Source: Candidatus Nanopelagicaceae bacterium (lineage in GTDB: Bacteria; Actinomycetota; Actinomycetes; Nanopelagicales; Nanopelagicaceae). Taken from it: a DNA stretch of 64,000 nt. Where the stretch lies: positions 2,597 to 66,596 of the forward strand of contig JBJTCN010000076.1 of the NCBI GenBank assembly GCA_046091905.1. The letters run 5' to 3'. Below are positions 5,701-32,644 of this stretch, piece by piece. How positions within the stretch are numbered: the first letter of the stretch is position 1; each line of letters opens with the position of its first letter. The notes under the pieces were generated by a model, which saw only the letters and a program-made list of their open reading frames with translations, was not told where the DNA came from and did no database searches. The position numbers were made by a program, and so were the translations under genes.

Positions 5701-6387
5701 ATAAAAACTTAACATCGTGCCGCCGATTAATGATGTGTAACGGGCACCGGCAGCATGCGATGCCATTGACATCGCAGGAATTGGTGAGAAACCTGCAACA
5801 CGGTCAGGACCAAATTCCTTAATTGTATGAACTTGAGCAGCTGCAACAATTTCTAGCGCTTCATCCCAAGTTGCGCGAACAAATCCGCCTTTACCTCGAA
5901 GCGATTTATAAGTTTTAGAAACTTCTTTATTTTCAATAATTATCGCCCAGGCATCAACCGGATCTCCGCCCACTGCAACTTTTGCTTTACGGTATGCGTC
6001 AAGTAAAAATCCGCGAATATATGGATAACGAATTCGAGTAGGAGAGTAGGTATACCAAGAGAAAGCTGCACCGCGAGGACATCCACGAGGTTCGTATTCA
6101 GGTGATTCAGCGCCTATTGATGGGTAATCAGTCTGTTGTGTTTCCCAAGTAATAACGCCATCTTTTACATAAACTTTCCAAGAACATGATCCGGTGCAAT
6201 TAACTCCGTGTGTTGATCTAACAATTTTGTCATGTGACCAACGTTCGCGATAGAAAGAATCGCTATCTCTTCCGCCTTCATAAAATACAGCGCGATGATC
6301 TTCTGAAATTTTACTTTTCGAAAGAAATGATCTGGTCGAAATTAAGTAATCGATAAAAGAATCGTCTGCTAACTGTTTCTTGCTCAT
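2716..6387 (-). CDS. narG: Respiratory nitrate reductase alpha subunit NarG (molybdopterin)
   Basis: 1223 aa. N-terminal FS0 motif HGVNCTGSCSWKVYVKDG. Length and overall architecture fit NarG. Confidence 0.95.
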   Translation of the reverse strand: MSKKQLADDSFIDYLISTRSFLSKSKISEDHRAVFYEGGRDSDSFYRERWSHDKIVRSTHGVNCTGSCSWKVYVKDGVITWETQQTDYPSIGAESPEYEPRGCPRGAAFSWYTYSPTRIRYPYIRGFLLDAYRKAKVAVGGDPVDAWAIIIENKEVSKTYKSLRGKGGFVRATWDEALEIVAAAQVHTIKEFGPDRVAGFSPIPAMSMASHAAGARYTSLIGGTMLSFYDWYCDLPIASPQIWGDQTDVPESADWWNASYLIMWGSNIPTTRTPDAHFMTEARYKGQKVVSVSPDYADNTKFADEWLPAQPGTDGALAMAMGHVILKEFYVDKETPEFLDYSKKFTDLPFLVSLTEINGKLTPDRFLTASDLGMEVDSSEWKPLLVDSSSNEVFIPNGTIGDRHTEVGMGKWNLDLEGRDPKLSFYNDGEFHAISLPRFDEKEEIINRGVPTRKIGSHLVTTVYDLILAQYGVGRDGLPGEWPTSYEDATSLYTPAWQEEITSVSAATVERIAREFAQNAKDSGGRSMITLGAGTNHWYHSDTIYRAIISLVLLTGCQGKNGGGWAHYVGQEKARPFTGWAQLAFGADWSRPPRQMAGTSYWYLATDQWRYDAWGAEELTSPLSRGTLSKTSMADTLVKATRMGWTPSFPTFNKNPLTIVKEAKEQGKDPKDYVVQSLKDGSLDFAVADPDNPINFPRVLTVWRANLLGSSGKGNEYFLHHLLGVEGAQSGPETPVEKRPKEMKWHDEAPTGKLDLLVSLDFRMTSTGLFSDILLPAATWYEKYDLSSTDMHPFIHAFNAAINPPWQARTDYDAFMKMSQVFSHLAQKHLGTQSDIVALPLQHDTPTEAAQPFGIVKDWKLGECEPIPGKTMPTLVTVERDYSAIAQKMQTLGPNVENLGTVVKGVTLKQGQAVEYLKNINGVSHEPLTAGRPLLQTAEQACETILALSGVSNGHVAVAGFRELEKRTGQKLADLALDNEGKQITFADTQSRPQGVITSWEWSGSEHGGRRYSPFTINVERLKPWHTLTGRQHFFLDHQWMSELGEQMPIFRPPLNLTTLSNYPKIGAQDELGIAVRYLTPHSKWSIHSEYQDNLFMLALSRGGPDIWMSVEDAEKIGVKDNDWIEAVNRNGVVVARAVVSHRMPEGLVYMYHAKDRTIDVPRVEATGKRGGIHNSLTRLLLKPSHLIGGYAQLSYGFNYYGPTGNQRDEVTVIRRRSQEVTY

Positions 6388-19390: not shown

Positions 19391-19839
19391 GCGTTTACAA
19401 CTAAAGCATCAACAGAAACAGAACCAGCTAAGCCAAAGAAGAATGAGACCGGAACTCGGTGACCGGCAATCAAACCAGCAGCGGCGAGCGCAGCTTCAGT
19501 ATTGGCAGAGTCGCCGCCAAAGATAATTGGCTTATTCTGTAACGCAATTTGTGGCACGATCTTAATTCCGACTTTATTGATTGCTACGGCAATTAGCGCA
19601 TCTTGAGTTGGCTTTTGATTAACAATGGTGCCAACCAATGAGGCATCGCCCGCGGCATTAACTGCTACATAGATATTGCGTAGGTAAATTAAATTGCCTT
19701 CAGATGCCAGGTTTGCCTCAACGCCATCTGTTACTTGATTAATCATTCTAGTAGGAGCGTTATTTCCAGTCCCGCTGCATGCGGTCAATGAAGTTGAAAG
19801 AATTGCTGCAGCAAAGGCGATGGCAAATTTCTTTTGCAT
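19387..19839 (-). CDS. Hypothetical lipoprotein
   Basis: Signal peptide with lipobox (LSTSLTAC). No recognisable catalytic motif. Confidence 0.5.
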   Translation of the reverse strand: MQKKFAIAFAAAILSTSLTACSGTGNNAPTRMINQVTDGVEANLASEGNLIYLRNIYVAVNAAGDASLVGTIVNQKPTQDALIAVAINKVGIKIVPQIALQNKPIIFGGDSANTEAALAAAGLIAGHRVPVSFFFGLAGSVSVDALVVNA

Positions 19840-20034
19840 TAATAACTCCCACGATTTTTAAAACTTTTGAGACTCGCGTATTTTATCAGTAGAAATGGTT
19901 CGCTTATAACCGCAAAATCAAGCTAAGAAATAGCGATTTACAATGATTTTTCGCGAGAAAAACTGATAGTGACTCTCTTATTAATCCATGCTAAAATTAT
20001 CCTTCTGCTTAACTCTTCTCCTGAAAGGCGTTAA

Positions 20035-20517
20035 ATGTCATTTAAGGTCGGCGAAACAGTTGTTTATCCTCATCACGGCGCAGCTCTAATCGAAGCAATC
20101 GAAAAACGTGTGATTAAAGGTGAAGAGAAGACCTACTTAGTTTTAAAGGTAGCTCAGGGCGATTTAACAGTCCGAGTACCAGCAGATAATGTGGATTTAG
20201 TTGGTGTACGAGATGTAGTTGATTCCGCAGGACTTGATCGCGTATTTAACGTATTGCGCCAGCCATACACCGAAGAACCAACCAACTGGTCACGTCGTTA
20301 CAAAGCAAATCTAGAGAAATTGGCTTCTGGCGATGTTATTAAAGTCGCAGAGGTAGTGCGCGATCTTTATCGTCGCGATTTAGACCGCGGTCTTTCAGCT
20401 GGCGAGAAGCGTATGTTGGCTAAGGCAAAGCAGATTTTGGTTTCAGAGTTAGCGTTGGCAGAACGCACCGATGAGGAAAAAGCAGCAACTATCCTCGACG
20501 AAGTACTTGCCTCATAA
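20035..20517 (+). CDS. carD: RNA polymerase-binding transcription factor CarD
   Basis: [20 protein letters not shown]... is the typical CarD/CdnL N-terminus. 160 aa. Confidence 0.95.
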
Positions 20518-21151
20518 ACTTTTAGTAATAGTTACGGTTGGCAGTCCTTTAGCGCTTCAACCGCTTAATGGAAGCAATCTTTTATCCGCAGCGCTTTCAT
20601 CTGCCTATCAATTCTCTGCCGAAACCAGCATTTCAAATCAATTATATGTCGCGGCGCAAGATTTAAATGCTGTTCGAGAAGCTACTAAAGGTATATCAAT
20701 AAATTTTTTGGACCTTGAATGTGACCCTAATAATCCAATTGAATTGGTAAAAGCAATTCAACCTTTGGAATTTGAAATGGTGGCAATACATGATGCGCAG
20801 CGGCCATTAACGCGAAGTACCCAATTTCATCGCACTTTAGAAGGTTTGTTTGGTTGCGATGCAGTTCGACCAACCATGGCATTTACGGAAACTTTGAAGG
20901 CGGTAAATGAATCATCTGAGCTTACGCACACAATTGATCGGACCAAATTTCGTCGCATTTCGAGCCCAGAAATTATCCGTCGCACAGTAATCGATTTTTC
21001 AGGAGGCGAAAGTAGTTGGATGGTTCCGTTAGTCAAGGAAGCTCGACTTTCAGAAGTAGAAGCAGATCCTGATTCAATTAGAATCAACAACGCAGAAGAA
21101 ATTACGCTGATGGAGGCTTTCCTTCATTGGCAACAGAAGATCGCTAAATAA
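20471..21151 (+). CDS. Degenerate IspD-like protein at the ancestral ispD position (pseudoenzyme or decaying gene)
   Basis: Keeps IspD-like blocks ([32 protein letters not shown]). The CTP-binding loop AAGxGxR...K is replaced by [10 protein letters not shown]. The only canonical start I found upstream of the IspD-like region is the ATG at 20471, which overlaps carD by 47 nt. Confidence 0.55.
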
Positions 21152-21161
21152 TTTAGATAAA

Positions 21162-21449
21162 TTACTTACCAAAGAGATTTTTGATCTCTTCCCAGAACTT
21201 CCGTGGCTGACCAAGGGCTTGACCTGGAAATTCAGTAAAAGTCTTCGTAGGGTTGCGCCAAAAGCGGCGCAATAACCTAAATGGCTTTGTTTTAATTCGA
21301 TGCTCTAAATCTTTTACATAAGCAACGCGTAAATCATCAGGCTCATGTTGCACCTTTGTTTTACAAACAGTGCAGGTTGTAGATGCAAGCAAACGGCCGG
21401 CATAAACAAGTTCGTGCACAGTTTCGGTCTTGCAATGTGCGCATTCCAA
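21162..21449 (-). CDS. Zinc-ribbon protein, function unknown
   Basis: CAHC...CTVC pairs in the first 33 residues and a basic C-terminus. Starts 22 nt downstream of ispD on the same strand. Confidence 0.5.
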   Translation of the reverse strand: MECAHCKTETVHELVYAGRLLASTTCTVCKTKVQHEPDDLRVAYVKDLEHRIKTKPFRLLRRFWRNPTKTFTEFPGQALGQPRKFWEEIKNLFGK

Positions 21450-21471
21450 AGTCGCGCTTATTGATTCGTGC

Positions 21472-22164
21472 TTAATCTTTATACCCCCTCTTTGCTAGAA
21501 CGTGTTCGGCAATCGCCAAATCCTGCGGATAGGTAATCTTTACATTTGTCGGTTCGCCTGTCACGGAGTGCGTCTTAATTGATGGAAAGTATCTCTCAAT
21601 ACAGGCACCCGTGTCAGTACCGGTAAATGAATCTTCAGCAGCTTTCAAGTAAGCCGATAGTAGCTCTTTGGCAATAAAACCTTGCGGGGTTTGTACGCGA
21701 ACTACTGGCACGTTCTGTTTAATATCCATTTCAATTGGCTCAACAGTAATCGTCGGAATCGCACCGCCATGTGTAACTGCTTCGGTAGCAATCTCTTTAA
21801 ATAAAGTAGGAGTGGCAAGCGGACGAGCACCATCGTGAATAAGCACCACATCGATTTCGCCCGAATCGATTCCGCTTCGTAAATGTATTAGCGCCTGATA
21901 TTCAGATTCATGGCGGGTTGCACCACCATAAACAATCTCAACTTTTAATTGCGGTACTTCGCGAGCTAAAACTTCTTTAGCCATCGCTTCATCATCTGGG
22001 TGAATAACCAAGACCAGGCGCGCTTTGTTAAAAGGCTTTGCTGCATTAACAAGAGATCTACTAATAATTCGACGGCCAGATAGGGGTAGCCAAACCTTGT
22101 TGGTACTGTGGCCAAAACGGGAACCAGAACCGGCTGCTAAAACAACGACAGCTGTGCGTTTCAT
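21472..22164 (-). CDS. ispD: 2-C-methyl-D-erythritol 4-phosphate cytidylyltransferase IspD (intact motifs)
   Basis: VVVLAAGSGSRFGHSTNKVWLPL, IHDGARPL, RVQTPQGF and VKITYPQDL are all present. Confidence 0.85.
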   Translation of the reverse strand: MKRTAVVVLAAGSGSRFGHSTNKVWLPLSGRRIISRSLVNAAKPFNKARLVLVIHPDDEAMAKEVLAREVPQLKVEIVYGGATRHESEYQALIHLRSGIDSGEIDVVLIHDGARPLATPTLFKEIATEAVTHGGAIPTITVEPIEMDIKQNVPVVRVQTPQGFIAKELLSAYLKAAEDSFTGTDTGACIERYFPSIKTHSVTGEPTNVKITYPQDLAIAEHVLAKRGYKD

Positions 22165-22190
22165 GTCGTAATTGTGGCAGACTTAAACGC

Positions 22191-22454
22191 ATGTGGCTTC
22201 CGAAGAGATTACGTAAGTCCACCGACCCTGTGGCAAAAGCTGCAGAGATAAAGGCTAAATTCGAGGCGAAGCGTAAACAACAGGGGTTATTTACTCCAGC
22301 ACAAGAAGCGTTGATGGATGAACTTGGTTTAAAGCCAGGAAGTAAAAAATCTGAATCGAAATCGAAACGTATTAAAAATACGAAAGCGCGCATTCCTCTG
22401 ACCGCGCGCCAACGTAAATTAGCTGAAGAACTTGGACTTATAAAGCCCGATTAA
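22191..22454 (+). CDS. Hypothetical small basic protein with an internal two-fold repeat
   Basis: 87 aa. Repeats LFTPAQEALMDELGLKP and LTARQRKLAEELGLIKP. It is the only + strand ORF inside the island, and coding status is uncertain. Confidence 0.35.
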   Translation: MWLPKRLRKSTDPVAKAAEIKAKFEAKRKQQGLFTPAQEALMDELGLKPGSKKSESKSKRIKNTKARIPLTARQRKLAEELGLIKPD

Positions 22455-22470
22455 GTTCGATTAATAACTC

Positions 22471-23763
22471 TTAGGCGTAGGTAAGTCCCATCGCATCTTG
22501 CTGGCGACGTAACTTCACGATTAATGAATCTTCATTTAGTTCAACATGATCGTAAGTTAATAGCTCGCCAGCTTTAATTGCTCTAACAATTGTGGCACCT
22601 TGAACCAAACCAATTGGTACCAAATTATCTCGCTTGGCATCCTTTGCAACATCTGCATAACCACGGACTGTGTATCCACCGATACCATCAATCTTGTCGC
22701 CAGGATTTAGTTCCTTCTTGGTCATACATACAACTTCTGCCATCAAACTTTCAGCATAAAGTGAAGATTCGCGATCGATAACAGCGCGTGCAACTGTCAT
22801 TGGAGCCTCTACCGACGCTAAGTGATATGGACGGTATAGCGCGAAATATGGACCAGGGCCCATTGAAAGGTATGACATTTCATGTGCAACATAAGGTGAA
22901 TCTGTTCGAACAATTACGAAAACACCTGGTGCTACATCGCCGGTGCAGTAATCAACTACACCTGGGCGATCTAAAACGCCGCCATCTGCTTGCAATGCGA
23001 AAGTCTCTTGCAGAGTTTTAACTGAAGAAGCCGGGCCATACATACCGCGCTTAGATAGCTCTAGCCCAGTGGTATTTGCCAGCGCTACCATCTCAGTCAT
23101 GGTCTTTGAACCATCAGTGAAAGAGCAGAGCATCTTCGGATTCATCTTCTTTGCATTTGCGCGATCACGTACCGTATCTGGATTGCTAAATGGTTCGAAG
23201 GGATTATTTTTACCTTTTCCAGCACAGACAATTTCAAAATTCAAATCTCTCGCAAAATCAACTAAAACTTTGGCCTCAACTGGTTCATCACCATGGCAGA
23301 CCGCATAGATTGCGCCGTTTTCGACCGCTTTCTTATTTAGCAATGGCCCAATAGTTACATCCATTTCCACGTTTAGCACAGCGATATCTTTCTTCGCCTC
23401 TAGCGCGCTATAGGTGATTTGCGCCCCGATATCCGGAACGCCAGTGCACTCAACAATAAAATCGATAGCTTCTAGGTCGCTAAGGAACTCGGTAGTGGTA
23501 GTTCCGGCTGATTTTCCTTCATTTAGAGCTTTTGCAATCTCTTTGGCGTCATTGCTGATGACTACATCAGAGACGCCAAGATCTTTAAATAGCTCAGTGA
23601 TGCGATTGGTATCAATATCAATAACTAAACGAACTGAAAGTCCTTGCATACGATGAACTTGGTTTCCAAAGCCACGCCCCATCTGACCCGCACCAACTAA
23701 GCCAATTCGAACGTCATGACCCAATTGTTTTGCGTGTTCTAATAATTTGTGACTGTATGCCAC
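22471..23763 (-). CDS. NAD(P)-dependent oxidoreductase of the COG4091 / SAF-domain family (DRL-like, 'predicted homoserine dehydrogenase')
   Basis: N-terminal Rossmann motif IGLVGAGQMGRG. 430 aa. The middle block GKGKNNP...DGSKTM.EM and the C-terminal SAF-like block (IKAGELLTY) are typical of the family that includes Brucella DRL. Family assignment is from motif recognition and no search was run. Confidence 0.6.
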   Translation of the reverse strand: MAYSHKLLEHAKQLGHDVRIGLVGAGQMGRGFGNQVHRMQGLSVRLVIDIDTNRITELFKDLGVSDVVISNDAKEIAKALNEGKSAGTTTTEFLSDLEAIDFIVECTGVPDIGAQITYSALEAKKDIAVLNVEMDVTIGPLLNKKAVENGAIYAVCHGDEPVEAKVLVDFARDLNFEIVCAGKGKNNPFEPFSNPDTVRDRANAKKMNPKMLCSFTDGSKTMTEMVALANTTGLELSKRGMYGPASSVKTLQETFALQADGGVLDRPGVVDYCTGDVAPGVFVIVRTDSPYVAHEMSYLSMGPGPYFALYRPYHLASVEAPMTVARAVIDRESSLYAESLMAEVVCMTKKELNPGDKIDGIGGYTVRGYADVAKDAKRDNLVPIGLVQGATIVRAIKAGELLTYDHVELNEDSLIVKLRRQQDAMGLTYA

Positions 23764-23793
23764 TTTATACTTCCTCGTTCTCTTAGCGGACTT

Positions 23794-24159
23794 TTAGTTT
23801 CTTGCAATAATTTCGAACTTATCGCCAACATTAATTATTGGCATTGGTCGAGCTTCAATATTGGTATCACCAGGAAGCTCAGCTTCATTTAATCCATTTG
23901 CCTTTAAATCTAAGTGCCCCAAATTTAATAAATTTTCAGAAACAACCGAACCAACTGCAAGCACATTGAATTCTTCATTGTTAATTCGTATTAAATCGCC
24001 AACTAATGGAGCTCGTTGGCTAATTTCAACTTTGTGTAGTACCGAAAAGTCGTGAAGCTCTTCGGGAGCGCCTTCGCCAAAGAACACAAGAATTCCTTGA
24101 TCTCGAAAATCTGATACTAATTCTCCGACTGCGGTGACCGTAGTTGAATAAACGACCAT
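23794..24159 (-). CDS. srlB: PTS glucitol/sorbitol-family EIIA component
   Basis: 121 aa. FGEGAPEEL...AVGSVVSENLLNLGHLDLKANGLNEAELPG is colinear with E. coli SrlB. Confidence 0.85.
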   Translation of the reverse strand: MVVYSTTVTAVGELVSDFRDQGILVFFGEGAPEELHDFSVLHKVEISQRAPLVGDLIRINNEEFNVLAVGSVVSENLLNLGHLDLKANGLNEAELPGDTNIEARPMPIINVGDKFEIIARN

Positions 24160-24530
24160 TACGCCGGCTTGATGTTTTCGGGCTTTACTCCAGATACGAA
24201 GAGATCTTTGGTGATAAACATCGCAAGTGGCCCAGCAGGGCTAGCCGCGTGGATATCAACTGTAAGCACTTTCTTCATTGGATAAACACCGACGCGGGCA
24301 GTACCGCCGCAGTCAATAACTGCAACTGCAATCTCATCAAATGGCTTTGAAGATTTGAAACCATCGAATGGCTCGCCGCCAGTGGCATCTGCAATTGCTT
24401 GTGCCACCGGATGTATTCCACCACCTGTTACAGAATAAATATATTTCTTTTTATCGGTTGGCAGGACTTCAAGTGGGCCGCCCCAGCCACCTTTACCTGC
24501 TTCAATAATGACTTTTTTATAATTTCCCAT
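24159..24530 (-). CDS. srlE: PTS glucitol-family EIIB domain protein (equivalent to the N-terminal third of SrlE)
   Basis: GKGGWGGPLEV and AVAVIDCGGTARVGVYP (phospho-Cys motif). It has its own AGGAG RBS. Confidence 0.85.
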   Translation of the reverse strand: MGNYKKVIIEAGKGGWGGPLEVLPTDKKKYIYSVTGGGIHPVAQAIADATGGEPFDGFKSSKPFDEIAVAVIDCGGTARVGVYPMKKVLTVDIHAASPAGPLAMFITKDLFVSGVKPENIKPA

Positions 24531-24585
24531 TGTAACTCCTAGATATTTACCTTAGTAATTGAGTGAATCTTACGTACTAAGTAAT

Positions 24586-24621
24586 CGAGGGCCAAAGTGA
24601 ATTTCTCCACTCTGGCCCTCG
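24586..24621 (-). promoter_or_regulatory. Strong intra-operon hairpin between the EIIC2 and EIIB genes
   Basis: CGAGGGCCAAAGTG-(8 nt)-CACTCTGGCCCTCG, 13/14 bp paired. It starts 8 nt after the EIIC2 stop. No U-tract follows on the minus strand. Confidence 0.5.
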
Positions 24622-24629
24622 AATACTCT

Positions 24630-25178
24630 TTATTTACTTACGGAGTAAAGTCCAAAGCTTGCAAAGTAAGCAATTACTACTGAAAGCGGACCGGTTACCA
24701 AGCGGCTAAATAGAACCGCAGGCACACCAACTTCAACAGTCTCTGGTTCAGCTTCGCCAAGAGCGAGACCTACCGGAATAAAGTCGCAACCAACCTGTGG
24801 GTTGATTGCAAATAGTGCTGGTAATGCGTATTGGGCAGGAATATTTCCCTTGCCGATTTCCACACCAAGCAGAGTTCCAACGATCTGTGCAATAACAGCT
24901 CCTGGTCCAAGCAATGGAGATAGAACTGGAAGAGCACAAACGATTGAGATTAATAGCAAACCTGGAAGTGAAGAAGCGGAACCCTTGATTCCCTTTGCAA
25001 TCCAGTCGCCGACACCGGTTGTAAGAATTAAACCGATGATGAAAGAGATAAACGCCATAAATGGAATGACGTTACGAATTACTGTATCAACAGTGTCACG
25101 ACCAGCCTGATAGAGAGTTCCAACTACTCCACCAACGCTGCGGCCGATTCTTGTAAGAAATGCGCTAATGCCACCCAT
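24630..25178 (-). CDS. srlE: PTS glucitol-family EIIC2 membrane component (equivalent to the C-terminal part of SrlE)
   Basis: FLTRIGRSVGGVVGTLYQAGRDTVDTVIRNVIPFMAFISF resembles the SrlE membrane half. It has its own GGAGG RBS. Confidence 0.8.
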   Translation of the reverse strand: MGGISAFLTRIGRSVGGVVGTLYQAGRDTVDTVIRNVIPFMAFISFIIGLILTTGVGDWIAKGIKGSASSLPGLLLISIVCALPVLSPLLGPGAVIAQIVGTLLGVEIGKGNIPAQYALPALFAINPQVGCDFIPVGLALGEAEPETVEVGVPAVLFSRLVTGPLSVVIAYFASFGLYSVSK

Positions 25179-25182
25179 GTTC

Positions 25183-25779
25183 TTATGCCTCCTTCTTCGC
25201 CATCATGCGAGCGGTAATCCACTCAGTCACGATGCCGCGAATAAAGATAACTACTAGGCCAACAAGTAAGTAACGAACTGCTAGGTCTCCAAGACCTAAA
25301 CCAAGTTGCGTAATACCTGTTGCAATACCTACATACACGAACAATTCGCCTGGGTTTGCGTGAGGGAAAATTCCCAGGATTGGGTGAACGAATGAAACAG
25401 CAGAATCGTAGAAAGCTGGCTTGTAACGCTCTGGTAAGAAGCGTCCCATTGTGTATGCCATTGGGTTTGTTAATACGAATACCGCTACGAAAGGAAGAAT
25501 GATGTAACGAACTGGGTACCACTGGATACCTGGTCGCGCAGCAGCCTTACCTAAGTTTTCAATCTTCTCAGGTCCGATGATTCGAACGAGAGCGTTTACA
25601 GCAGTTAGCAGCACAACAAGAGTTGGAAGAATTCCGCCCATAAGTGAGAGCAGAACTGATCCACCTTTGTTGAAAACTTTAATAAAGTCTTCAGCTGCCG
25701 TAGCCAATGCGCCAAGTACGCCGGTTGGCTTATCAACGGTTACCTCCGCTAAGCGGTAACCAACTGATAGTAGGTTCAA
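25183..25779 (-). CDS. srlA: PTS glucitol-family EIIC1 component
   Basis: GRFLPERYKPAFY...FPHANPGELFVYVGIATG matches SrlA. TTG start with GGAGG 6 nt upstream. Confidence 0.85.
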   Translation of the reverse strand: MNLLSVGYRLAEVTVDKPTGVLGALATAAEDFIKVFNKGGSVLLSLMGGILPTLVVLLTAVNALVRIIGPEKIENLGKAAARPGIQWYPVRYIILPFVAVFVLTNPMAYTMGRFLPERYKPAFYDSAVSFVHPILGIFPHANPGELFVYVGIATGITQLGLGLGDLAVRYLLVGLVVIFIRGIVTEWITARMMAKKEA

Positions 25780-25860
25780 TGCACACCTCCTAAGTGTGTC
25801 GTGGGATCAATAAGTCAGTTACGACTTATTGGAAACAAACGCCCGTACGGTGATCGTTTG

Positions 25861-26277
25861 CTATTCCGCATCGTCAGATTTACTGCGATTAATATGAGCA
25901 TCGATATGTTCTGCCGCCATCCGTGTAGCGTCAGTTATCTTCTGCTTTCTATTCGCAGCAACTCGGTCGCCCGAGATTATTTCTTTGATGTGGAATCCTT
26001 TGTAATCAGTAAAGGGCTTACCTTTTGCCATTACTGTGATGCCGGTAAGTAGTAATCCATCGGAAACTACTCCGTTTTTATCTGCTAAAAGTGCAACATA
26101 TGAGCGACCACCGCGATAGCGCCTGCCACCTACTCCGATTGCGACAATACCGCCGTCGATGCTTTTACGAAGGTCTGCTAACTGTTTCTGAAAACGATTG
26201 GCTTGCCGCCAAGCTAGAAATAACTGGAAAGCCCAGGCAATACCTAGAACTGTAAATAGCGTACCTAGACCGCTCAT
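25861..26277 (-). CDS. gutM: GutM-like glucitol operon activator
   Basis: N-terminal TM segment plus AWRQANRFQK, and a GutM-like length if started at MSGLGTLF (ATG at 26275-26277, ATGA overlap with the sorC stop). The ORF-track start at 26328 is unlikely. Confidence 0.65.
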   Translation of the reverse strand: MSGLGTLFTVLGIAWAFQLFLAWRQANRFQKQLADLRKSIDGGIVAIGVGGRRYRGGRSYVALLADKNGVVSDGLLLTGITVMAKGKPFTDYKGFHIKEIISGDRVAANRKQKITDATRMAAEHIDAHINRSKSDDAE

Positions 26278-27272
26278 GCTGTTCGTGCCTCCGAGCCAGA
26301 TAAAAATTTCAAAATAGCATTTGCACAAGCCAAATCTAAAATTAATTGATCAACTAATTTGCTGCGAGCAGCTCCTACAACTCCAAGCACTTTATCTGCA
26401 CCTGTAGCCACACCAATTACCCGAGGAATTTTTCTAACTTCATCTAAAGAAAGCCCTATGACTCGGCTATCAATGGCAGTTGAAAGGATTTTGCCTTGCG
26501 CATTATAAAAACGCGCTGCGATATCACCTGCCATATTTCTAAAAATAGATTCACGTTCAGACTTGGGTAAGCCAAATTCCTCGACCAACATCTCAGAAGA
26601 TGTAGATCCTGCAGAGCCAATGCCTACCAGTGCAACGTCCGCTTTACGTGCCACATTTAAAACTCTAGTAACTGCTGGTTCGGCCATTAACGAATCGCGA
26701 GTTTTCTGTGAGCTCACTACAACTGGTGCGCTAAAAGGTATGAAATCTGCATTTAAGTTACGAGCAAGTGTGCGGCCTACTTCTTCAGCGCTTACCGATG
26801 TAATCACATTGGACATAGAGCCCATTAATTGAGTAACCTTCAAACCGGGAAGGCTATCTTTGCGACAATTAACTACAGTAGCTTCAAGACCGCGCCCCCA
26901 AGAAATCGCAATAGTTTGATTGGCCCTTAAACCTTTTTGCAATGTTTGCGCAGCGCTTCTACCTACGGCATTTAAAGCTAAGTCATTTCTATCAGGGGCG
27001 ATAACTTGTATTTCATCAATTCCAAGCTTTTCGATTAATTGTTGCGCTAGATAATCATGTCGAGATGTAGGCGCAATGATTCGAATTTCAACGTAACCTA
27101 AACGTTTCGCCGCGGTAAGCATTCTGGAGATATTTGAACGAGAAGTATTTAATTTAGAAGCAACTTGATCTTGTGAAAGCTCATCTTCGTAATAAAGGCG
27201 CGCGGCTTGCAAAATAAGCTCGGTTTCGCGCTGTTTCATCAAGATCCGATCTACCTGATCTACTTTGACCAA
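26274..27272 (-). CDS. SorC-family sugar-binding transcriptional regulator
   Basis: LQAARLYYEDELSQDQVASKLNTSRSNISRMLTAAKRLGYVEIRI HTH region, plus a sugar-phosphate binding domain. Confidence 0.85.
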   Translation of the reverse strand: MVKVDQVDRILMKQRETELILQAARLYYEDELSQDQVASKLNTSRSNISRMLTAAKRLGYVEIRIIAPTSRHDYLAQQLIEKLGIDEIQVIAPDRNDLALNAVGRSAAQTLQKGLRANQTIAISWGRGLEATVVNCRKDSLPGLKVTQLMGSMSNVITSVSAEEVGRTLARNLNADFIPFSAPVVVSSQKTRDSLMAEPAVTRVLNVARKADVALVGIGSAGSTSSEMLVEEFGLPKSERESIFRNMAGDIAARFYNAQGKILSTAIDSRVIGLSLDEVRKIPRVIGVATGADKVLGVVGAARSKLVDQLILDLACANAILKFLSGSEARTA

Positions 27273-27306
27273 GTTTTAACCTTAGTTGTCCTGCGGGTTG
27301 GCGATA

Positions 27307-27377
27307 GTGTGCTCCAGCACACAGTTGCGGTCAAGGACATTTGTGAGCGTTTTTGTGAATTACTGGCACGTACGTGC
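27307..27377. promoter_or_regulatory. Two perfect palindromes between the E2 stop and the sorC start
   Basis: GTGTGCT-CC-AGCACAC (27307-27322) and GCACGTACGTGC (27366-27377). Confidence 0.35.
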
Positions 27378-27380
27378 AGA

Positions 27381-28421
27381 TTAAATGTGGGCAATGAGGT
27401 GATCTAACAAGTTGGCTCCATCATAAAAATCAAGCGCTCGCAGGTCGATAGTCAGTGAAAGCGAGAGCGCGCCCTGCAAATCCACGCCGACATTTAGCGC
27501 CGTGCTTTGATTTGGAAAGAGCACTGGCCTATTGGATGCCATCTTGTAACTTGTTAAATCAAAGATGGTGGTGGTGGCGCCGTTTAACATTGCAAGTGGA
27601 ACTTTGCCATTCATAGCTTGTTCGGTAGTTGTTGCGACTAATTGGATCAGAGAAGTAAAATCCAATTGGTCTGGGTTTTTAAATACGGGAAGAGCACTTC
27701 CGTACTTTGATTCGATAATTAATGCGACACCAATATCCGTTAATCCGAAACCTCTTAAAGTCTTTGCCCAATTAGCTAGCAAGTTGGCATGCCACTCAGC
27801 TTGGCCTGCGGAGCGCTTCTGCACTGCGCGAGTAAATGAAGTCTGTGCAATGCCCAAGTTCATCTCAATGCCCTTGGCAATTAGAGCTTTATTGGCTTCT
27901 TTTCGAGCTGTGATTGCTGGGTCAATATTCGAATTTAAAACATCTTCGTAAGAGATTGTTTCAAATGGCCCCGTTGGATGAATAGTTTTCAGATCTATTC
28001 CCTTTTCCGTCGCTAGCTTTCTTGCAGCAGGTACGGATTTTGGGTTGTCATTTATAATTACAGAATCTGCTACTACAGGGGCAACTGGAGTCGCAACCAC
28101 AGGTGGAACCCCTGCCTCACTTGCATTGTCGTTGGGCTCGGACATATCGAAATCAAAACTCAAGATTTGAGATTGGGTCTCCATAATCAAAACGGGTTTA
28201 CCAATTTCCAACACTGCACCAGGTGCTGCAACCAGTTTTTCGACTATTCCATCAGCAGGAGCTTCGACTTCCATGTCAATCTTGTCGGTCATTACTTCAA
28301 AAAGCACGTCTCCAGCTTTCACTTCTTGTCCTTCAGAGACATGAAAACCAATTAATTCGCCGGTTTCCATAGTCATGCTCATCTTTGGCATCACAACTGT
28401 GTGCTTGAAACTCATCGCCAC
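27381..28421 (-). CDS. Lipoyl-domain E2-like protein with a shortened, motif-eroded acyltransferase core
   Basis: The lipoyl domain is intact ([17 protein letters not shown]) and a peripheral subunit-binding domain is present ([14 protein letters not shown]). The core has [10 protein letters not shown] where GGTFTISNLG is expected, and [10 protein letters not shown] where DHRxxDG is expected. Confidence 0.75.
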
Positions 28422-29410
28422 TGCCTAACAATTTCTACAGCAGCGGCGTAAATATCTTCAACTTGTGGTACCGCAGCTTTTTCAAGTTGTGGCGCGTAAG
28501 GAATTGGAATATTTAGACCAGCAAGTTTCTTAATAGGCGCTTTTAATGACCCAAAAACATGTGAACCTGCAACTTGGGCCACAATTTCATTGATAAAGCC
28601 ACCATGTGATGGACCTTCTTGGACGACCAATAAACGACCAGTAGAAGTTACTGAATCAAAAGTTGTCGTCATATCAAGCGGAGAAATAGTGCGCGGATCG
28701 ATAACAGTTAATTCGATACCTTCAGATGCGAGTTTCTCTGCTGCTTCGAGAGCTTTCATTACCATAATTCCGGTAGCGACTACAGTTAAATCTTTACCAG
28801 TACGAATTACTCGACTTACACCAAGTGGAATTCGGGTATTCCCTTCAGGCACAGCCTCCCAGCCAGGAGTTTTGTACAGCAATTTGTGTTCTAGGAAAAC
28901 AACTGGATTAGGATCATCAATTGCGGAAAGTAAAAGTCCTTTTGCATCTGAAGGATTTGATGGAACTACAACTTTTAATCCTGGAACATTGGTAAACCAA
29001 TTCTCAACAATCTGTGAATGTTGTGCCGCCGCACCGGTACCTGAACCTTGTGGAGCGCGGATAACCATCGGAACATGTAGCGCGCCACCTAACATAAAGT
29101 GAATTTTCGCCGCTTGGTTTGCAATTTGATCCATTGCTTGTGCAGAAAAGTCAGAGAATTGAATTTCTGCAATCGGGCGCATTCCAGAAAGTGCAGCACC
29201 TACCGCTGCTCCAATGTATCCAAGTTCAGAGATTGGTGTATCGATTACGCGATCTGCACCAAACTTTTCAAACATTCCAGCAGAGACACCAAATGCGCCG
29301 CCATAAATACCGACATCTTCGCCCATTAAAAACACTTCTGGACGTTCTTCCATGGCAATGGTCATTGCTTCACGAACAGCTTCTGCCATGGTCAACATGC
29401 GATCTGACAC
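28412..29410 (-). CDS. acoB: TPP-dependent 2-oxoacid/acetoin dehydrogenase E1 beta subunit
   Basis: MAEAVREAM...FLMGEDVG...VIDTPISE pattern. 10-nt overlap with the E2 gene. Confidence 0.8.
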
Positions 29411-30421
29411 TTACATTTTTCCAATCTGTGAATCCATGAATACCGCGGCTTCAAGACTGGCAGGATCTGACGCTTTTGCTTTAACTGATTCATTAACGGC
29501 CGCGATTATTTCATCAGTTGCTTGTTGTTGCACCGCATCCATCTCTTCCTGAGTTAAAAGGTTTTTCTCATGGAGTAGAGACATAAATTTTGCTATTGGT
29601 TCTTTAGTTTTCCACTCTTCAATTTCTTCTTTAGTGCGATAAAGATTTTTATCAGAACGAGAATGACCTTTCCAACGATAAGTCACACATTCAATTAATG
29701 TTGGGCCAGCACCGTTGCGGGCTGATTCAATAGCTCGTTCGGCTGCCTCGTAAACAGCAACTACGTCATTGCCATCAACTGTCACACCAGGAATTCCATA
29801 ACCAAGTCCGCGGTCTGCGAGATTTTCTAGCGCAAATGCTTTTTCAGTGGAATTAGACATTCCATATTTATTATTTTCACAGACAAAAACCACTGGTAAT
29901 TTCCAAATTGCGGCCATATTTGCAGCTTCATGAAAAGCACCTTCATTAAGAGCACCATCGCCGAAAAAAGAAACGGCGATTGTTTCTCTCTTCATCAATT
30001 TAGATGCAAGTGCCGCACCAGTTGCAATAGGAATTCCACCAGCCACAATTCCATTTGCGCCAAGATTGCCGGTTTCAACATCAGCAATATGCATAGAACC
30101 GCCGCGACCGCCGCAATAACCAATTTCTTTTCCTAGGAGCTCTGCAATCATGCGAGTGAGATCAGCACCTTTTGCGATGCAATGTCCGTGGCCGCGATGT
30201 GTTGAAGTAATTTGATCAGTAAGCTTAAGAGCCATACAGACTCCGGTAGGAGAGGCTTCTTGGCCAATTGATAAATGCATGGTTCCGTGCATCATTCCTC
30301 GACCAAACAAATCTTCAACAGCTTCTTCGAATTTTCGAATCTTCCACATGTAAAGAAGTGCATGTGATGCGTGCGCTTTAGAAGAGAGCGGGTGGCCAAT
30401 TAGTAAATTTTTTGTCGCCAT
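29411..30421 (-). CDS. acoA: TPP-dependent E1 alpha subunit, acetoin-dehydrogenase (AcoA) type
   Basis: HLSIGQEA, STHRGHGHCIAKG and GDGALNEGAFHEAANMAAIWKLPVVFVCENNKYGMS (TPP motif). The THRGHGHCIAKG block is characteristic of the AcoA clade, in my recollection. Confidence 0.75.
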   Translation of the reverse strand: MATKNLLIGHPLSSKAHASHALLYMWKIRKFEEAVEDLFGRGMMHGTMHLSIGQEASPTGVCMALKLTDQITSTHRGHGHCIAKGADLTRMIAELLGKEIGYCGGRGGSMHIADVETGNLGANGIVAGGIPIATGAALASKLMKRETIAVSFFGDGALNEGAFHEAANMAAIWKLPVVFVCENNKYGMSNSTEKAFALENLADRGLGYGIPGVTVDGNDVVAVYEAAERAIESARNGAGPTLIECVTYRWKGHSRSDKNLYRTKEEIEEWKTKEPIAKFMSLLHEKNLLTQEEMDAVQQQATDEIIAAVNESVKAKASDPASLEAAVFMDSQIGKM

Positions 30422-30432
30422 TAATCTACTTT

Positions 30433-30464
30433 CACATATGTGCAGATCGCTGAACAGATGTTCA
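30433..30464. promoter_or_regulatory. Two palindromes in the 78-nt divergent region between the E1 alpha gene and ptsH
   Basis: CACATATGTG (30433-30442) and TGAACA-GA-TGTTCA (30451-30464). Confidence 0.35.
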
Positions 30465-30499
30465 TATTTAACAGGAGAAGATTCAATTACGCTAGCCCA

Positions 30500-30778
30500 A
30501 TGAAGGAATTTCTCACAAAAGTAGGTTCTCCAGTGGGGCTACACGCCCGCCCAGCATCGCTATTTGCAAAGGCTGCTAAGGAATCTGGATGCAAAGTTTC
30601 ACTTGCCAAGATCTCTGAAGATGGCAGTGAATCTCCTTTTGTCGATGGTGTATCGTTATTAAAAATTATGGCGCTTGGAATTAAATGCGGCGAATCAATC
30701 AAAGTGCAAGTCGAAGGCGATAATGAAGAAACCGCAGCTGCGGCACTGCAAGCAATTGTTGAAAGCTCCGATCACTAA
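30500..30778 (+). CDS. ptsH: Phosphocarrier protein HPr
   Basis: Starting at the ATG at 30500 places GLHARPA with the His at residue 15. 92 aa. The longer GTG-initiated ORF from 30440 is not supported. Confidence 0.85.
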   Translation: MKEFLTKVGSPVGLHARPASLFAKAAKESGCKVSLAKISEDGSESPFVDGVSLLKIMALGIKCGESIKVQVEGDNEETAAAALQAIVESSDH

Positions 30779-30785
30779 CTTCTAT

Positions 30786-31274
30786 ATGTCTATAAATAAT
30801 CTACGAACCGGTGTCGGTGTTGATGCGCATAAGTTTGTGCAATCGGCATCTGATGGACCATGCCATTTGGCAGGTTTGGAGTGGACAGAAAGTAATCGTT
30901 TGGAAGGCCATTCAGATGGCGATGCCGCAGTGCACGCGCTATGCGATGCCGTCTTAGCAGCCGCCGGTTTAGGAGATGTGGGACAAGTATTTGGAATTGA
31001 TAAACCAGAATGGAAGGGCGCAAGTGGCACAAAGATGATTGAACATCTGCGCACTTTGATTTCGGAAAAGGGAATTGAAATCAATAATGTTTCGATTCAA
31101 ATTGTAGGAAATACACCAAAGATTGCTAAACGCCGCGATGAAGCCCAGCAAGTCTTATCAAAAGCACTTGGCGCACCTGTCACAATTGGCGCTACTACTA
31201 CTGACACAATGGGATTTACTGGACGCGGCGAAGGGGTATTCGTGATTGCAAATGCTTTGGTGCGTCTGCCATGA
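30786..31274 (+). CDS. ispF: 2-C-methyl-D-erythritol 2,4-cyclodiphosphate synthase IspF
   Basis: GVGVDAHKF...GHSDGDAAVHAL...TTTDTMGFTGRGEG. The ATG at 30786 gives the normal ~160 aa length. Confidence 0.9.
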   Translation: MSINNLRTGVGVDAHKFVQSASDGPCHLAGLEWTESNRLEGHSDGDAAVHALCDAVLAAAGLGDVGQVFGIDKPEWKGASGTKMIEHLRTLISEKGIEINNVSIQIVGNTPKIAKRRDEAQQVLSKALGAPVTIGATTTDTMGFTGRGEGVFVIANALVRLP

Positions 31275-32644
31275 AGCTCTACAACACTCGTACTCGCGAG
31301 ACTTCTGAATTTAAACCGCTAGTTGCCGGCAAAGCAGGCATCTATGTCTGCGGTGCAACGGTGCAATCATTTCCGCATATTGGACATGTTCGAAGTGGAA
31401 TTAATTTCGATATTTTGCGCCGTTGGTTAACTGCCAACGGCTACGACGTCACCTTTATTCGTAATGTGACTGATATCGATGACAAAATTCTTGAGAAATC
31501 AAAGGCTGAAAATATGCCTTGGTGGGCTTTAGCTTTTAAGTACGAACAAGAATTTCAAAAAGCATATGCGCTATTAAACGTATTACCACCAACTTATGAG
31601 CCACGCGCTACTGGTCACATCACACAAATGATTGAATTAATGGAGAAATTGATTGCTAATGGCGCGGCATACGCACCAGGTAATGGCGATGTGTATTTAG
31701 AAGTTCGTAAATTAAATTCTTATTTAACGCTTTCACGCCAGAAGTTAGATGATCTGCTGCCTGCCGCAGATGCAGATGAAAGTGCCAAGCGCGATGTCCG
31801 CGATTTCGCGCTATGGAAAGCAGCTAAAGCTGGCGAACCATCATGGCCAACTCCTTGGGGCGCAGGTCGCCCAGGTTGGCATTTGGAGTGCTCTGCCATG
31901 GCACACTCTTATTTAGGTGAAGCTTTTGATATTCACGGCGGTGGCTTAGATTTAATTTTCCCGCACCACGAAAACGAGATTGCACAATCAGAAGCGGCTG
32001 GTTATAAGTTTGCCAATATTTGGATGCACAATGCTTGGGTTACGCAATCTGGCGAAAAAATGTCTAAATCACTTGGTAACACCATGCAAGTGAAGGAATT
32101 TGTAAAGCAAGTTCGCGGAATTGAGTTACGTTTCTATTTAGGAAGCGCGCATTACCGTTCTATGTTGGAATTTTCACCAGCAGCGCTACAAGAAGCGGCC
32201 ACTAATTTCCAACGTATTGAGAACTTCCTTATCCGCGCCAAAGAACTTGTTGGCAATGTTGAAGGAGTTATCAGTGCGCCAGTTAAAGCGGCATTTGATG
32301 ATGATTTAGCAGTACCGCAAGTACTGGCACAGATTTCAGATGCCCTTCGTCGCGGAAATAGTGCAATTACTGAAAATTCTAAAGATGCAGTTAAAGCAGC
32401 GGCGGCAGAAATTCGCGGTGCGTTAAGTATTTTAGGTTGCGATCCATTTGATGCTGCTTTTGGTTCAGTTGGCGCTGTTTTAAGCGATGCATTAGATGGT
32501 GTAATTCAATTAGCGTTAGCGCAACGTGCAGCCGCACGCGAACGTAAAGATTTTGCTAGCTCTGATGCCATTCGTGATGGACTTGCTGCGCTAGGAATTG
32601 CAATTGAGGATACGCCTCAAGGACCACGTTGGAGTATTAAATAA
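31271..32644 (+). CDS. cysS: Cysteine--tRNA ligase
   Basis: HIGH-type motif (FPHIGHVRSG) and KMSKS. Confidence 0.95.
   Translation: MKLYNTRTRETSEFKPLVAGKAGIYVCGATVQSFPHIGHVRSGINFDILRRWLTANGYDVTFIRNVTDIDDKILEKSKAENMPWWALAFKYEQEFQKAYALLNVLPPTYEPRATGHITQMIELMEKLIANGAAYAPGNGDVYLEVRKLNSYLTLSRQKLDDLLPAADADESAKRDVRDFALWKAAKAGEPSWPTPWGAGRPGWHLECSAMAHSYLGEAFDIHGGGLDLIFPHHENEIAQSEAAGYKFANIWMHNAWVTQSGEKMSKSLGNTMQVKEFVKQVRGIELRFYLGSAHYRSMLEFSPAALQEAATNFQRIENFLIRAKELVGNVEGVISAPVKAAFDDDLAVPQVLAQISDALRRGNSAITENSKDAVKAAAAEIRGALSILGCDPFDAAFGSVGAVLSDALDGVIQLALAQRAAARERKDFASSDAIRDGLAALGIAIEDTPQGPRWSIK

Follow-up and report, generated by a model that had tools for sequence, protein, structure and literature searches.

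We find that the interval between carD and ispF in a 64,000-nucleotide stretch of DNA from a Candidatus Nanopelagicaceae bacterium (assembly GCA_046091905.1, contig JBJTCN010000076.1; hereafter the window) holds what is very probably one functional module for the catabolism of a polyol phosphate. Its parts are a glucitol (Gut)-family phosphotransferase system (PTS), an oxidoreductase of the DXR-II/DRL type (hereafter DRL), and a thiamine pyrophosphate (TPP)-dependent E1 alpha/beta pair (E1ab) with a lipoyl-bearing E2-like protein, and they lie beside IspD and IspF of the MEP pathway (MEP, 2-C-methyl-D-erythritol 4-phosphate). The order of the genes suggests that the PTS makes a polyol phosphate, from which DRL produces a carbonyl compound open to cleavage by the TPP-dependent E1. 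A more tentative proposal, to which we give a probability of about 0.45, is that the substrate and the intermediate of this module are methylerythritol phosphate and DXP (1-deoxy-D-xylulose 5-phosphate), respectively.

Genes were called from a listing of open reading frames (ORFs) combined with Pfam and NCBIfam scans, and homology was traced by tblastn. All four components of the PTS were matched by glucitol-family profiles at 106-240 bits (EIIC1, PF03608; EIIB, PF03612; EIIC2, PF07663; EIIA, PF03829), so that the transporter is complete, as the original prediction had it, and EIIB contains an IDCGGTAR motif. The EIIBC protein (SrlE) is split into two genes that are permuted, with EIIC2 preceding EIIB across a gap of 99 nt, and the same split EIIC2-EIIB order occurs in loci from Chloroflexota, Spirochaetota and unclassified high-GC metagenome-assembled genomes (L140, L144, L145, L152, L153; here and below, L-numbers label individual sampled loci). 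The EIIA stop codon is situated 30 nt upstream of the DRL start, and EIIA also stands directly before DRL in those relatives that possess the PTS (PTS+). The predicted absence of an SrlD-type dehydrogenase from the block was confirmed, Pfam searches between 21162 and 30421 revealing no dehydrogenase other than DRL, including polyol-phosphate dehydrogenases of the short-chain (SDR)/SrlD type.

The oxidoreductase possesses the three-domain architecture of DXR-II (PF21135, 210 bits; SAF, 33.7 bits; NAD_binding_3, 25.3 bits). Its residues 12-425 align with residues 18-435 of Brucella DRL (3UPY_A, E = 1.4e-96), the structure 3UPL is likewise matched over its full length, and identity to Brucella and Bacillota DXR-II is ~45-48%. 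With residues numbered after PMC3847144, the window protein and all 78 aligned Nanopelagicaceae copies keep G121, K191, K193 and T229, which anchor fosmidomycin or the substrate, and R320, a residue of the dimer (roles after PMC3847144). This signature is common to DXR-II-like representatives and is lost in remoter ones, in a comparison made without labelled DLO1/DLO2 references. By its level of identity and its residue signature, the window oxidoreductase is thus predicted to be of the DXR-II/DRL type, and the full-length match to 3UPY and the kept anchor residues would place it with DRL, as originally proposed, rather than with a non-DRL clade. An exact-sequence look-up of the window DRL returned no record, and homologues were used in its place.

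For the E1 subunits, E1 alpha scores 358 against TIGR03182, below the cut-off of 393.85, with human pyruvate dehydrogenase (PDH) E1 alpha as its best solved relative (208 bits), while E1 beta scores 357.7 in NCBIfam, above the subfamily cut-off of 321. The earlier label "AcoA/AcoB-type" is not supported; source annotations call homologous E1 alpha proteins pyruvate or acetoin dehydrogenase. Within modules of the same kind, identity is 56-57% to Bacillota E1 alpha proteins and 56-59% to the E1 beta proteins of Tepidanaerobacter, Paenibacillus and Thermaerobacter. The E2-like protein contains a lipoyl domain (PF00364, 56 bits) with a TDKIDMEV motif and a peripheral-subunit-binding domain (PF02817, 39 bits).

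Recurrence of the gene order in other phyla

A scan with a DXR-II alignment, taking one genome per GTDB species, returned 80 named loci, 49 of which extend at least 5 kb to both sides of DRL; for high-GC loci, in which the strand of some ORFs comes out wrong in greedy maps, tblastn maps were relied on instead. Among these 49 well-covered loci from other phyla, a Gut-type PTS is present in 36, E1ab in 24, both together in 19, and a SorC-type regulator in 37. The usual order is PTS-DRL-E1a-E1b-E2(-E3), as seen in Bacillota, Chloroflexota, Rubrobacter and Synergistaceae. Dozens of independent contigs show the same order, far more than chance would produce. Tepidanaerobacter syntrophicus, for example, has SorC-GutM-EIIC-EIIBC-EIIA-DRL-E1a-E1b-E2, and Thermaerobacter repeats this order with HPr and PtsI upstream. 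Variants also exist: in Paenibacillus validus an ATP-binding cassette (ABC) transporter replaces the PTS and is followed by E1a-E1b-E2-E3-DRL-SorC, several Bacillales include E3 inside the module, and Spirochaetota carry a PTS-DRL unit without E1/E2. The Listeria lmo054x genes are a further candidate pair of Gut PTS and DXR-II, although no Listeria locus was among the 80 returned.

Clustering of neighbouring ORFs, together with Pfam, defines three contexts in which DRL is found. The first is PTS-DRL-E1ab-E2(-E3), often accompanied by a homologue of a small zinc-ribbon protein of the window. The second joins PTS-DRL to a class II aldolase (~282 aa), a divergent protein resembling triosephosphate isomerase (TIM-like; ~230 aa) and UPF0047; it occurs in gut and oral anaerobes and has no E1/E2 (L092, L117, L120, L122, L127-L137, L142, L155). 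The third, without a PTS, combines an unknown ORF, a zinc-dependent alcohol dehydrogenase (Zn-ADH), DRL, an FGGY kinase and RpiR (L143, L146, L147, L149, L166). In quick neighbour-joining (NJ) trees of DRL, the E1/E2-linked loci, including those of Nanopelagicaceae, lie on deep branches, with the aldolase type forming a derived crown group, and the Nanopelagicaceae clade lies among E1/E2-associated DRLs.

In the inverse test, which was anchored on the module E1 alpha, all four loci sampled proved to be PTS-linked: two have Gut-PTS-DRL-E1ab-E2, and two have E1ab-E2 joined to a GAT-family PTS without DRL, such that DRL is present in these four only where the PTS is of the polyol (Gut) type. The two latter loci, from Thermoanaerobacter uzonensis (L178, 2477-11552) and a Chloroflexi metagenome-assembled genome (L180, 4148-11453), carry a galactitol/ascorbate-family PTS (EIIC-GAT, IIA, IIB), and the module in L178 includes the zinc-ribbon protein. 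In L085, L087 and L088, the Gut-PTS-DRL-E1 module likewise has a GAT-type PTS immediately upstream.

The association with isoprenoid genes recurs independently as well. IspD is embedded in the module in L140 (order IspD-E1a-E1b-E2), L152 and L153, the module lies upstream of ispD-ispF in a Salinicoccus (L107), and it is divergent from carD-ispD-ispF in a Treponema (L108). The adjacency of isp, PTS and E1 genes is consequently not a one-off insertion, the block itself recurring across phyla. In the Bacillota examined, DRL lies outside MEP loci. The IspD neighbours of L092, L130 and L135 were not counted, as in these loci IspD trails an ORF of ~342-349 aa upstream of the module that is TarI/TarJ-like by size only.

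Core and accessory genes of the carD-ispF interval

The genes of the interval and their supporting matches are given in Table 1. The 12 minus-strand genes, HPr and ispF-cysS-rlmB all lie where the original prediction had placed them, including HPr on the plus strand and the 7 nt that separate it from ispF, yet the gene list was incomplete, a plus-strand ORF of 87 aa having been overlooked. The comparison with Mycobacterium-type genomes holds for the gene order but not for the type of genome: GC content of the window is ~44%, and the nearest matches to the oxidoreductase are freshwater metagenome sequences of 70-91% identity, those with names being assigned to Ca. Nanopelagicaceae, Actinomycetales or Actinomycetota, which makes the host an actinobacterium of the acI type. 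Scans of 19800-31400 for promoters (9 vs 19 expected) and terminators (13 vs 11.6) gave no excess over shuffled sequence, and an Rfam search at E <= 1 returned nothing, and so no riboswitch or leader is proposed.

Table 1 Genes of the carD-ispF interval and its flanks, with window positions, strand and supporting evidence
Feature	Position	Strand	Evidence and remarks
carD	20035-20517	+	Pfam CarD_C, CarD_TRCF_RID; 98-99% identity across relatives; left flank, recombination boundary of the cassette
IspD' (IspD-like paralogue without Gly-rich cytidine triphosphate (CTP) loop)	20471-21151	+	PF01128 38.8 bits, profile positions 84-166
Zinc-ribbon small ORF (Cys4; CxxC...CxxC, TKPxR motifs)	21162-21449	-	No Pfam/NCBIfam family
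Canonical IspD (predicted MEP cytidylyltransferase)	21472-22164	-	PF01128 full length, 132 bits
Basic ORF of 87 aa between DRL and IspD, running antisense to the operon	22191-22454	+	tblastn conservation; no Pfam/NCBIfam family
DXR-II/DRL-type NAD(P) oxidoreductase (Rossmann + DRL_cat + SAF)	22471-23763	-	PF21135 210 bits
PTS EIIA, glucitol family	23794-24159	-	PF03829 106 bits
PTS EIIB, glucitol family (SrlE N-terminal domain as own gene)	24159-24530	-	PF03612 positions 2-116, 170 bits
PTS EIIC2 (C-terminal half of SrlE)	24630-25178	-	PF07663 163 bits, plus tail of PF03612
PTS EIIC1 (SrlA-type)	25183-25779	-	PF03608 240 bits; 85-98% identity across relatives
GutM-type operon activator	25861-26328	-	PF06923 68.5 bits; NF007592 50 bits
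SorC/DeoR(Bacillus)-type sugar-phosphate-binding regulator	26274-27272	-	PF04198 (Sugar-bind) 199 bits
E2-like lipoyl carrier (probable)	27381-28421	-	PF00364, PF02817, weak PF00198 (32.6 bits)
TPP-dependent dehydrogenase E1 beta	28412-29410	-	PF02779 149 bits, PF02780 123 bits
TPP-dependent dehydrogenase E1 alpha (PDH/acetoin-type heterotetramer family)	29411-30421	-	PF00676 303 bits
HPr phosphocarrier, divergent from E1 alpha	ORF from 30440, likely start 30500, end 30778	+	PF00381 77 bits; GLHARPA motif
ispF (2-C-methyl-D-erythritol 2,4-cyclodiphosphate (MEcPP) synthase), right flank, then cysS, rlmB	30786-31274	+	PF02542 164 bits; ATG 7 nt past HPr stop

Three samples of related genomes were compared, namely look-ups anchored on DRL, a DRL-anchored metagenome scan (80 loci), and a sample anchored on an identical CarD protein, which is unbiased as to DRL. 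Of the two genomes found by look-up, both of which carry these genes at another chromosomal locus, one has DRL-IspD followed only by a convergent IspD-like gene, and the other has the full block plus Enzyme I. The metagenome scan comprised 39 PTS+ loci, 31 loci lacking the PTS (PTS-; 27 plain and 4 keeping HPr) and 10 undetermined ones; IspD follows DRL in 47/47 informative loci, and IspD' is intact in 46/47. The carD-anchored sample contains seven long and three short cassettes, and in each of them IspD', IspD and DRL lie between carD and HPr-ispF. DRL, canonical IspD and IspD' are thus core genes of the Nanopelagicaceae MEP locus even where the PTS and E1/E2 are missing, and the baseline arrangement of the family is carD - IspD' - (IspD and DRL on the opposite strand) - ispF, rather than carD-ispD-ispF. 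The view of an operon simply split by a 9.3-kb insertion consequently fails, the same three genes forming the core in PTS-less relatives too.

The accessory unit measures ~7 kb and consists of the Gut-type PTS, SorC, GutM, E1ab, the E2-like gene and the zinc-ribbon ORF, plus the 87-aa ORF. Its parts travel together: E1 is found in all 18 PTS+ loci with enough upstream sequence and in no PTS- locus save for a weak E1b-like match in L067 (27% identity), and the zinc-ribbon ORF is present in 25/26 PTS+ vs 1/21 PTS- loci. In 17 of 18 well-covered related PTS+ loci the block includes a ptsI gene between E2 and SorC, which the window clade (the window, L005, L006, L012) lacks. All module genes are under purifying selection, judged by the ratio of non-synonymous to synonymous substitution (dN/dS), with values of 0.02-0.10 for the PTS, E1 and E2 genes between members of the window clade, none of which has a local PtsI; that these PTS genes remain constrained implies that Enzyme I is encoded elsewhere in the genome.

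Nucleotide comparison suggests how long and short forms are exchanged. Two loci from the same sampling campaign, L168 (short; its cassette has HPr only) and L169 (long; PTS/E1E2), share 97.3% identity across the 10.5 kb that end with the final base of carD, after which identity falls to ~70% through IspD', IspD and DRL, the breakpoint coinciding exactly with the end of carD; the interval is equivalent to window positions 20518-30421. The interval between carD and HPr-ispF therefore behaves like a swappable cassette existing in two old allelic forms, a reading that rests on the L168/L169 comparison because the DRL copies of close relatives that differ from the window protein (72% identity) form just a sister clade on a long branch. 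A foreign replacement, suggested by that 72% identity, was dropped once the tree had placed these copies so. Nanopelagicaceae DRLs are monophyletic in the NJ tree, PTS+ and PTS- clades alternate, and HPr-only loci are sister to the window clade, a pattern that fits repeated loss of the PTS/E1 part. HPr is kept directly upstream of ispF without local PTS genes in L039, L057, L059, L060, L168, L170 and L176, where it may have been left behind when a PTS block was lost, or may have another role.

The two IspD-like genes differ in their motifs. Canonical IspD retains AAGSGSRFG...NKV, IHDGARPL, VQTPQ and NVKIT intact in alignment, its TIGR00453 score of 142.8 lies below the equivalog cut-off of 181.3, and its best solved relatives are IspD enzymes; it is likely to be the functional IspD of Nanopelagicaceae. 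In all aligned copies of IspD', a 12-residue deletion removes the GxGxR...K loop and the Lys of NxKxT is replaced by Arg, while IHDxxRPL, FTETLK and RISTPE are kept, along with the MEP-binding and dimer-arm motifs. Although the gene next to carD was originally described as eroded, it shows no decay, being an intact ORF in all but one of the informative loci, with dN/dS of 0.10-0.21, and it is conserved throughout the family in the ancestral ispD position (70 related loci). IspD' is thus probably a pseudo-enzyme or partner subunit rather than a pseudogene, and may serve as a regulatory or heterodimer partner of canonical IspD.

The zinc-ribbon ORF is homologous to proteins of 105-159 aa beside DRL or E2 in Bacillota and Ktedonobacterales. 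A hidden Markov model of it matched 21 loci, L178 without DRL among them, and E1/E2 lie on the same stretch in all but L091 and L106; the protein tracks the E1/E2 module. The 87-aa ORF is 43-88% identical by tblastn across ~30 PTS+ loci, and other gene callers annotate it too, with a length of 89 aa in L169 and L171-L175. It is rich in Lys and Arg, contains two ...ELGL repeats, and is absent from PTS- loci, where DRL and IspD overlap.

Elsewhere in the window, at 540-6387 on the minus strand, there is a respiratory nitrate reductase, with the beta subunit at 1154-2716 (Fer4_11, Nitr_red_bet_C) preceded by a 1223-aa ORF at 2716-6387 that is probably the alpha subunit. A 1012-aa ORF at 60949-63987 (minus strand), with E1-/E2-like tblastn matches at 62122-63999, resembles the fused 2-oxoglutarate dehydrogenase (OdhA/Kgd type) of actinobacteria and is unrelated to the cassette.

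Substrate assignment and competing explanations

Under the mechanism that we propose, the long cassette would add an inducible polyol-utilisation module to the MEP genes DRL, IspD and IspD'. HPr and an Enzyme I encoded elsewhere would phosphorylate EIIA and EIIB, and the PTS would import a small polyol, most likely 2-C-methyl-D-erythritol, releasing it as the 4-phosphate, MEP. This could be carried forward into isoprenoids by IspD and IspF (salvage), or it could be converted by DRL to DXP, which E1ab would cleave at C2-C3 to glyceraldehyde 3-phosphate (GAP) and hydroxyethyl-TPP, the two-carbon unit passing oxidatively to the lipoyl arm of the E2-like protein. Another acyltransferase would then complete the transfer to coenzyme A (CoA), as the E2 core of Nanopelagicaceae lacks the catalytic His.

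Four considerations lead us to MEP and DXP in particular. The Salmonella sorbitol PTS reportedly transports methylerythritol, as Testa et al. 2004 (J Bacteriol 186:473) state in their title, which suggests methylerythritol as a cargo for a Gut-family PTS. In several phyla, IspD and ispF are found in association with the module. E1 enzymes of this class would be expected to cleave alpha-ketols next to the carbonyl, and DXP seems to be the sole plausible product of DRL from which cleavage at C2-C3 would release GAP and an acetyl unit, both of them central metabolites. Finally, tested members of the DRL family interconvert DXP and MEP, even where the source organism has no MEP pathway: an E. coli dxr mutant is complemented by proteins of the DXR-II clade, among them those from Finegoldia magna, which has neither the MEP nor the mevalonate (MVA) pathway, and from Chloroflexus, which has the MVA pathway only (PMC3847144).

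Several observations weigh against this assignment, and they begin with the enzymes themselves. Nearly every DXR-II protein has His at position 250 (PMC3847144), where the window DRL and nearly all Nanopelagicaceae copies, PTS+ or PTS-, have Tyr; E174 is likewise replaced by Val in Nanopelagicaceae DRLs irrespective of the PTS. The E2 catalytic His (DHRxxDG) is replaced by Leu, giving DL[RN] in all 24 Nanopelagicaceae copies; the module E2s shown from other taxa keep it in 25/25 (24 DHR, one DHA). Of the eroded catalytic motifs originally described for E2, the loss of His is thus real, but decay is not, the change being family-wide and the gene conserved (dN/dS 0.08-0.09), and the Nanopelagicaceae E2 probably acts as a lipoyl carrier or scaffold. 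Neither ptsI nor lpd (E3) was matched by tblastn in the block or in the whole window; among ten large window ORFs screened by size there was no ptsI, dxr or dxs, the remaining window being unscreened for dxs, dxr, ispE, ispG and ispH. The DXR reaction favours MEP, and the catabolic direction would need a pull from the E1 step.

Context and physiology furnish further difficulties. Since DRL and IspD are core genes in this family, their position beside ispF requires no catabolic explanation. The E1/E2 subfamily occurs with a GAT-family PTS where DRL is missing; this variant might suit a keto compound, for example deoxyxylulose, that is imported directly, although that is speculation. The aldolase/TIM-like and Zn-ADH/FGGY contexts would also fit a tetritol such as erythritol, while, equally speculatively, the aldolase variant could reach dihydroxyacetone phosphate (DHAP) and acetaldehyde after carbonyl migration. 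Halanaerobium polyolivorans grows on erythritol, and not on sorbitol, without known ery genes (PMC10536098), and Halanaerobium genomes carry the DRL module (L115).

The growth of this Halanaerobium on erythritol would be readily accommodated if the imported compound were a different small polyol, for instance erythritol, threitol, one of the 1-deoxy or 6-deoxy kind, or one with a branched chain (apiitol), with DRL acting as a polyol-phosphate dehydrogenase, E1/E2 cleaving the resulting ketol phosphate, and IspD and ispF being neighbours because DRL doubles as DXR. We regard this, the main rival, as less likely than the methylerythritol assignment, even though H250Y could signify a change of substrate in Nanopelagicaceae, the core of DRL, IspD and IspD' persists without a PTS, and a class II aldolase and a TIM-like protein accompany PTS-DRL in derived variants. 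These latter variants recall the tetrulose-phosphate isomerases reported for the Brucella erythritol pathway (Barbier 2014, as cited in PMC10536098). D-apionate oxidoisomerase, a candidate relative, serves as an analogy only. Tetrulose phosphates, however, would be expected to yield glycolyl and glycolaldehyde-phosphate fragments through E1, which are not central metabolites, IspD lies inside the module in unrelated lineages (L140, L152, L153), and the module stands beside ispD-ispF in three phyla. Moreover, true DXR activity is found in DXR-II clade enzymes whose source organisms lack the MEP pathway (PMC3847144).

It is also conceivable, albeit improbable, that nothing connects the genes functionally: DRL-IspD would be housekeeping, the PTS an ordinary sorbitol transporter with its dehydrogenase elsewhere, E1/E2 a pyruvate or acetoin dehydrogenase as the source annotations of E1 alpha homologues have it, and the interval a hotspot of insertion and recombination. 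The interval clearly is a recombination cassette, and its PTS/E1 part is dispensable. Mere coincidence would nevertheless leave unexplained the order PTS-DRL-E1a-E1b-E2 in Bacillota (where DRL is outside the MEP locus), Chloroflexota, Rubrobacter and Synergistaceae, the constant presence of E1 in well-covered PTS+ loci and its absence, L067 aside, from PTS- loci, the lack of any other dehydrogenase in the block, the mere 30 nt between EIIA and DRL, and an E2 unable to work as a normal acetyltransferase.

We consider it very improbable that the pathway runs in the anabolic direction, with E1ab acting like DXP synthase (pyruvate + GAP -> DXP), with E1, DRL and IspD forming an alternative upper MEP pathway, and with the PTS unrelated or regulatory. 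E1 alpha is weakly similar to the Pfam domain DXP_synthase_N, the order in L140 (IspD-E1a-E1b-E2) would suit such a role, and E. coli PDH E1 mutants can supply DXP (PMC3424233). Yet the conserved lipoyl-E2, with E3 in Bacillales, points to an oxidative complex, control by SorC/GutM and linkage to a PTS are what catabolic operons typically show, some carriers have no MEP pathway (PMC3847144), and PTS- Nanopelagicaceae that have no E1 keep DRL and IspD, so that E1 cannot be their source of DXP. Just as hard to credit is a non-functional remnant in this genome, its Enzyme I lost, its E2 dead and the block heading for deletion as in sister lineages: PtsI is indeed absent from the window clade as opposed to 17/18 other well-covered PTS+ loci, the E2 His has become Leu and the DRL tree implies repeated loss of the block, but every ORF is intact, the PTS, E1 and E2 genes of the ptsI-less window clade are tightly constrained, and the His -> Leu change is old and family-wide in an E2 whose sequence is still conserved.

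Comparison with known systems and implications

All parts of the module come from known families, and it is their combination and the implied chemistry that would be new. In the open-access literature, we found no description of methylerythritol catabolism or of a DXR-II/PTS/E1 module, and nothing relevant on 2-methyltetrol degradation, lmo0546, or isoprenoid or PTS genes of Nanopelagicales.

The closest studied relative of the oxidoreductase is DRL/DXR-II of Brucella abortus (3UPL, 3UPY; Sangari 2010; PMC3847144), with which the window protein shares the Rossmann, DRL_cat and SAF domains as well as K191, K193, T229 and R320. The Nanopelagicaceae gene sits with IspD and IspF, as would be expected of a biosynthetic DXR. 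Unlike the Brucella enzyme, the window DRL has the H250Y and E174V replacements, and the window gene, like most of those from outside the Alphaproteobacteria, is found downstream of a Gut-type PTS, with E1ab/E2 as neighbours. The transporter resembles the srlAEBD-gutM-srlR operon of E. coli and Salmonella in having EIIC1 (SrlA), the EIIBC domains (SrlE), EIIA (SrlB) and GutM, but DRL takes the place of SrlD, SrlE is split and permuted, the regulator is of SorC type, and E1ab/E2 and IspD are attached.

The heterotetramer-type E1 alpha/beta, and the lipoyl and peripheral-subunit-binding domains of E2, recall AcoABCL and PDH-type complexes, and acetoin dehydrogenase cleaves a methyl ketol, as proposed by analogy for the window E1. 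In contrast to these complexes, the E1 subfamily of the window is PTS-linked in all four sampled cases, the E2 has no catalytic His, the block includes no E3, and the proposed substrate is a phosphorylated ketol, DXP. The E1 step would formally reverse the second half-reaction of DXS (hydroxyethyl-TPP + GAP <-> DXP), consistent with the faint DXP_synthase_N similarity noted above, yet the window E1 belongs to another protein family, with split alpha and beta subunits coupled to a lipoyl-E2, and its cleavage would involve oxidative trapping. Erythritol catabolism in Brucella (EryA-D, TpiA2/EryH, RpiB/EryI) likewise breaks down a C4 polyol, using a dehydrogenase for the polyol phosphate together with TIM-like isomerases, and resembles the PTS-DRL-aldolase-TIM-like variant; the window, unlike that pathway, has no TIM-like, aldolase or kinase genes, and has E1/E2 instead.

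Carretero-Paulet et al. 2013 leave open why a redundant DXR-II evolved or persists in bacteria that have DXR-I or lack the MEP pathway, offering ad hoc answers only, and their paper has no mention of a sorbitol or PTS context (PMC3847144). Gene context offers a testable answer, namely that DXR-II provides the entry step to a catabolic or salvage module linked to a PTS. A possible, if doubtful, extension of this idea is a widespread pathway for 2-C-methyl-D-erythritol (and perhaps, via the GAT-type PTS, for free deoxyxylulose), in which the PTS would deliver methylerythritol as MEP, DXR-II would run in reverse, and DXP would be converted to GAP and acetyl-CoA by E1ab/E2(/E3) with the zinc-ribbon protein. 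On this scenario, DXR-II would be ancestrally catabolic and would have been co-opted later as a biosynthetic DXR, for instance in Nanopelagicaceae, where it would have arrived with its own IspD, the resident IspD being reduced to a paralogue without its P-loop. A catabolic ancestry would explain the presence of DXR-II in bacteria that possess DXR-I or that have no MEP pathway.

If methylerythritol phosphate and DXP are indeed the compounds handled, the module would represent a new carbon-source pathway, and a phosphorylated methyl ketol would constitute a new class of substrate for E1 enzymes of the PDH/acetoin type. Methylerythritol salvage would also give bacteria a way around two antibiotic targets, DXS and DXR. 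Cultured carriers (Tepidanaerobacter, Virgibacillus, Marinococcus, Planococcus, Paenibacillus) permit direct testing of these possibilities. For the abundant freshwater acI bacteria, the finding, if true, would mean a strain-variable nutrient niche carried on a swappable cassette.

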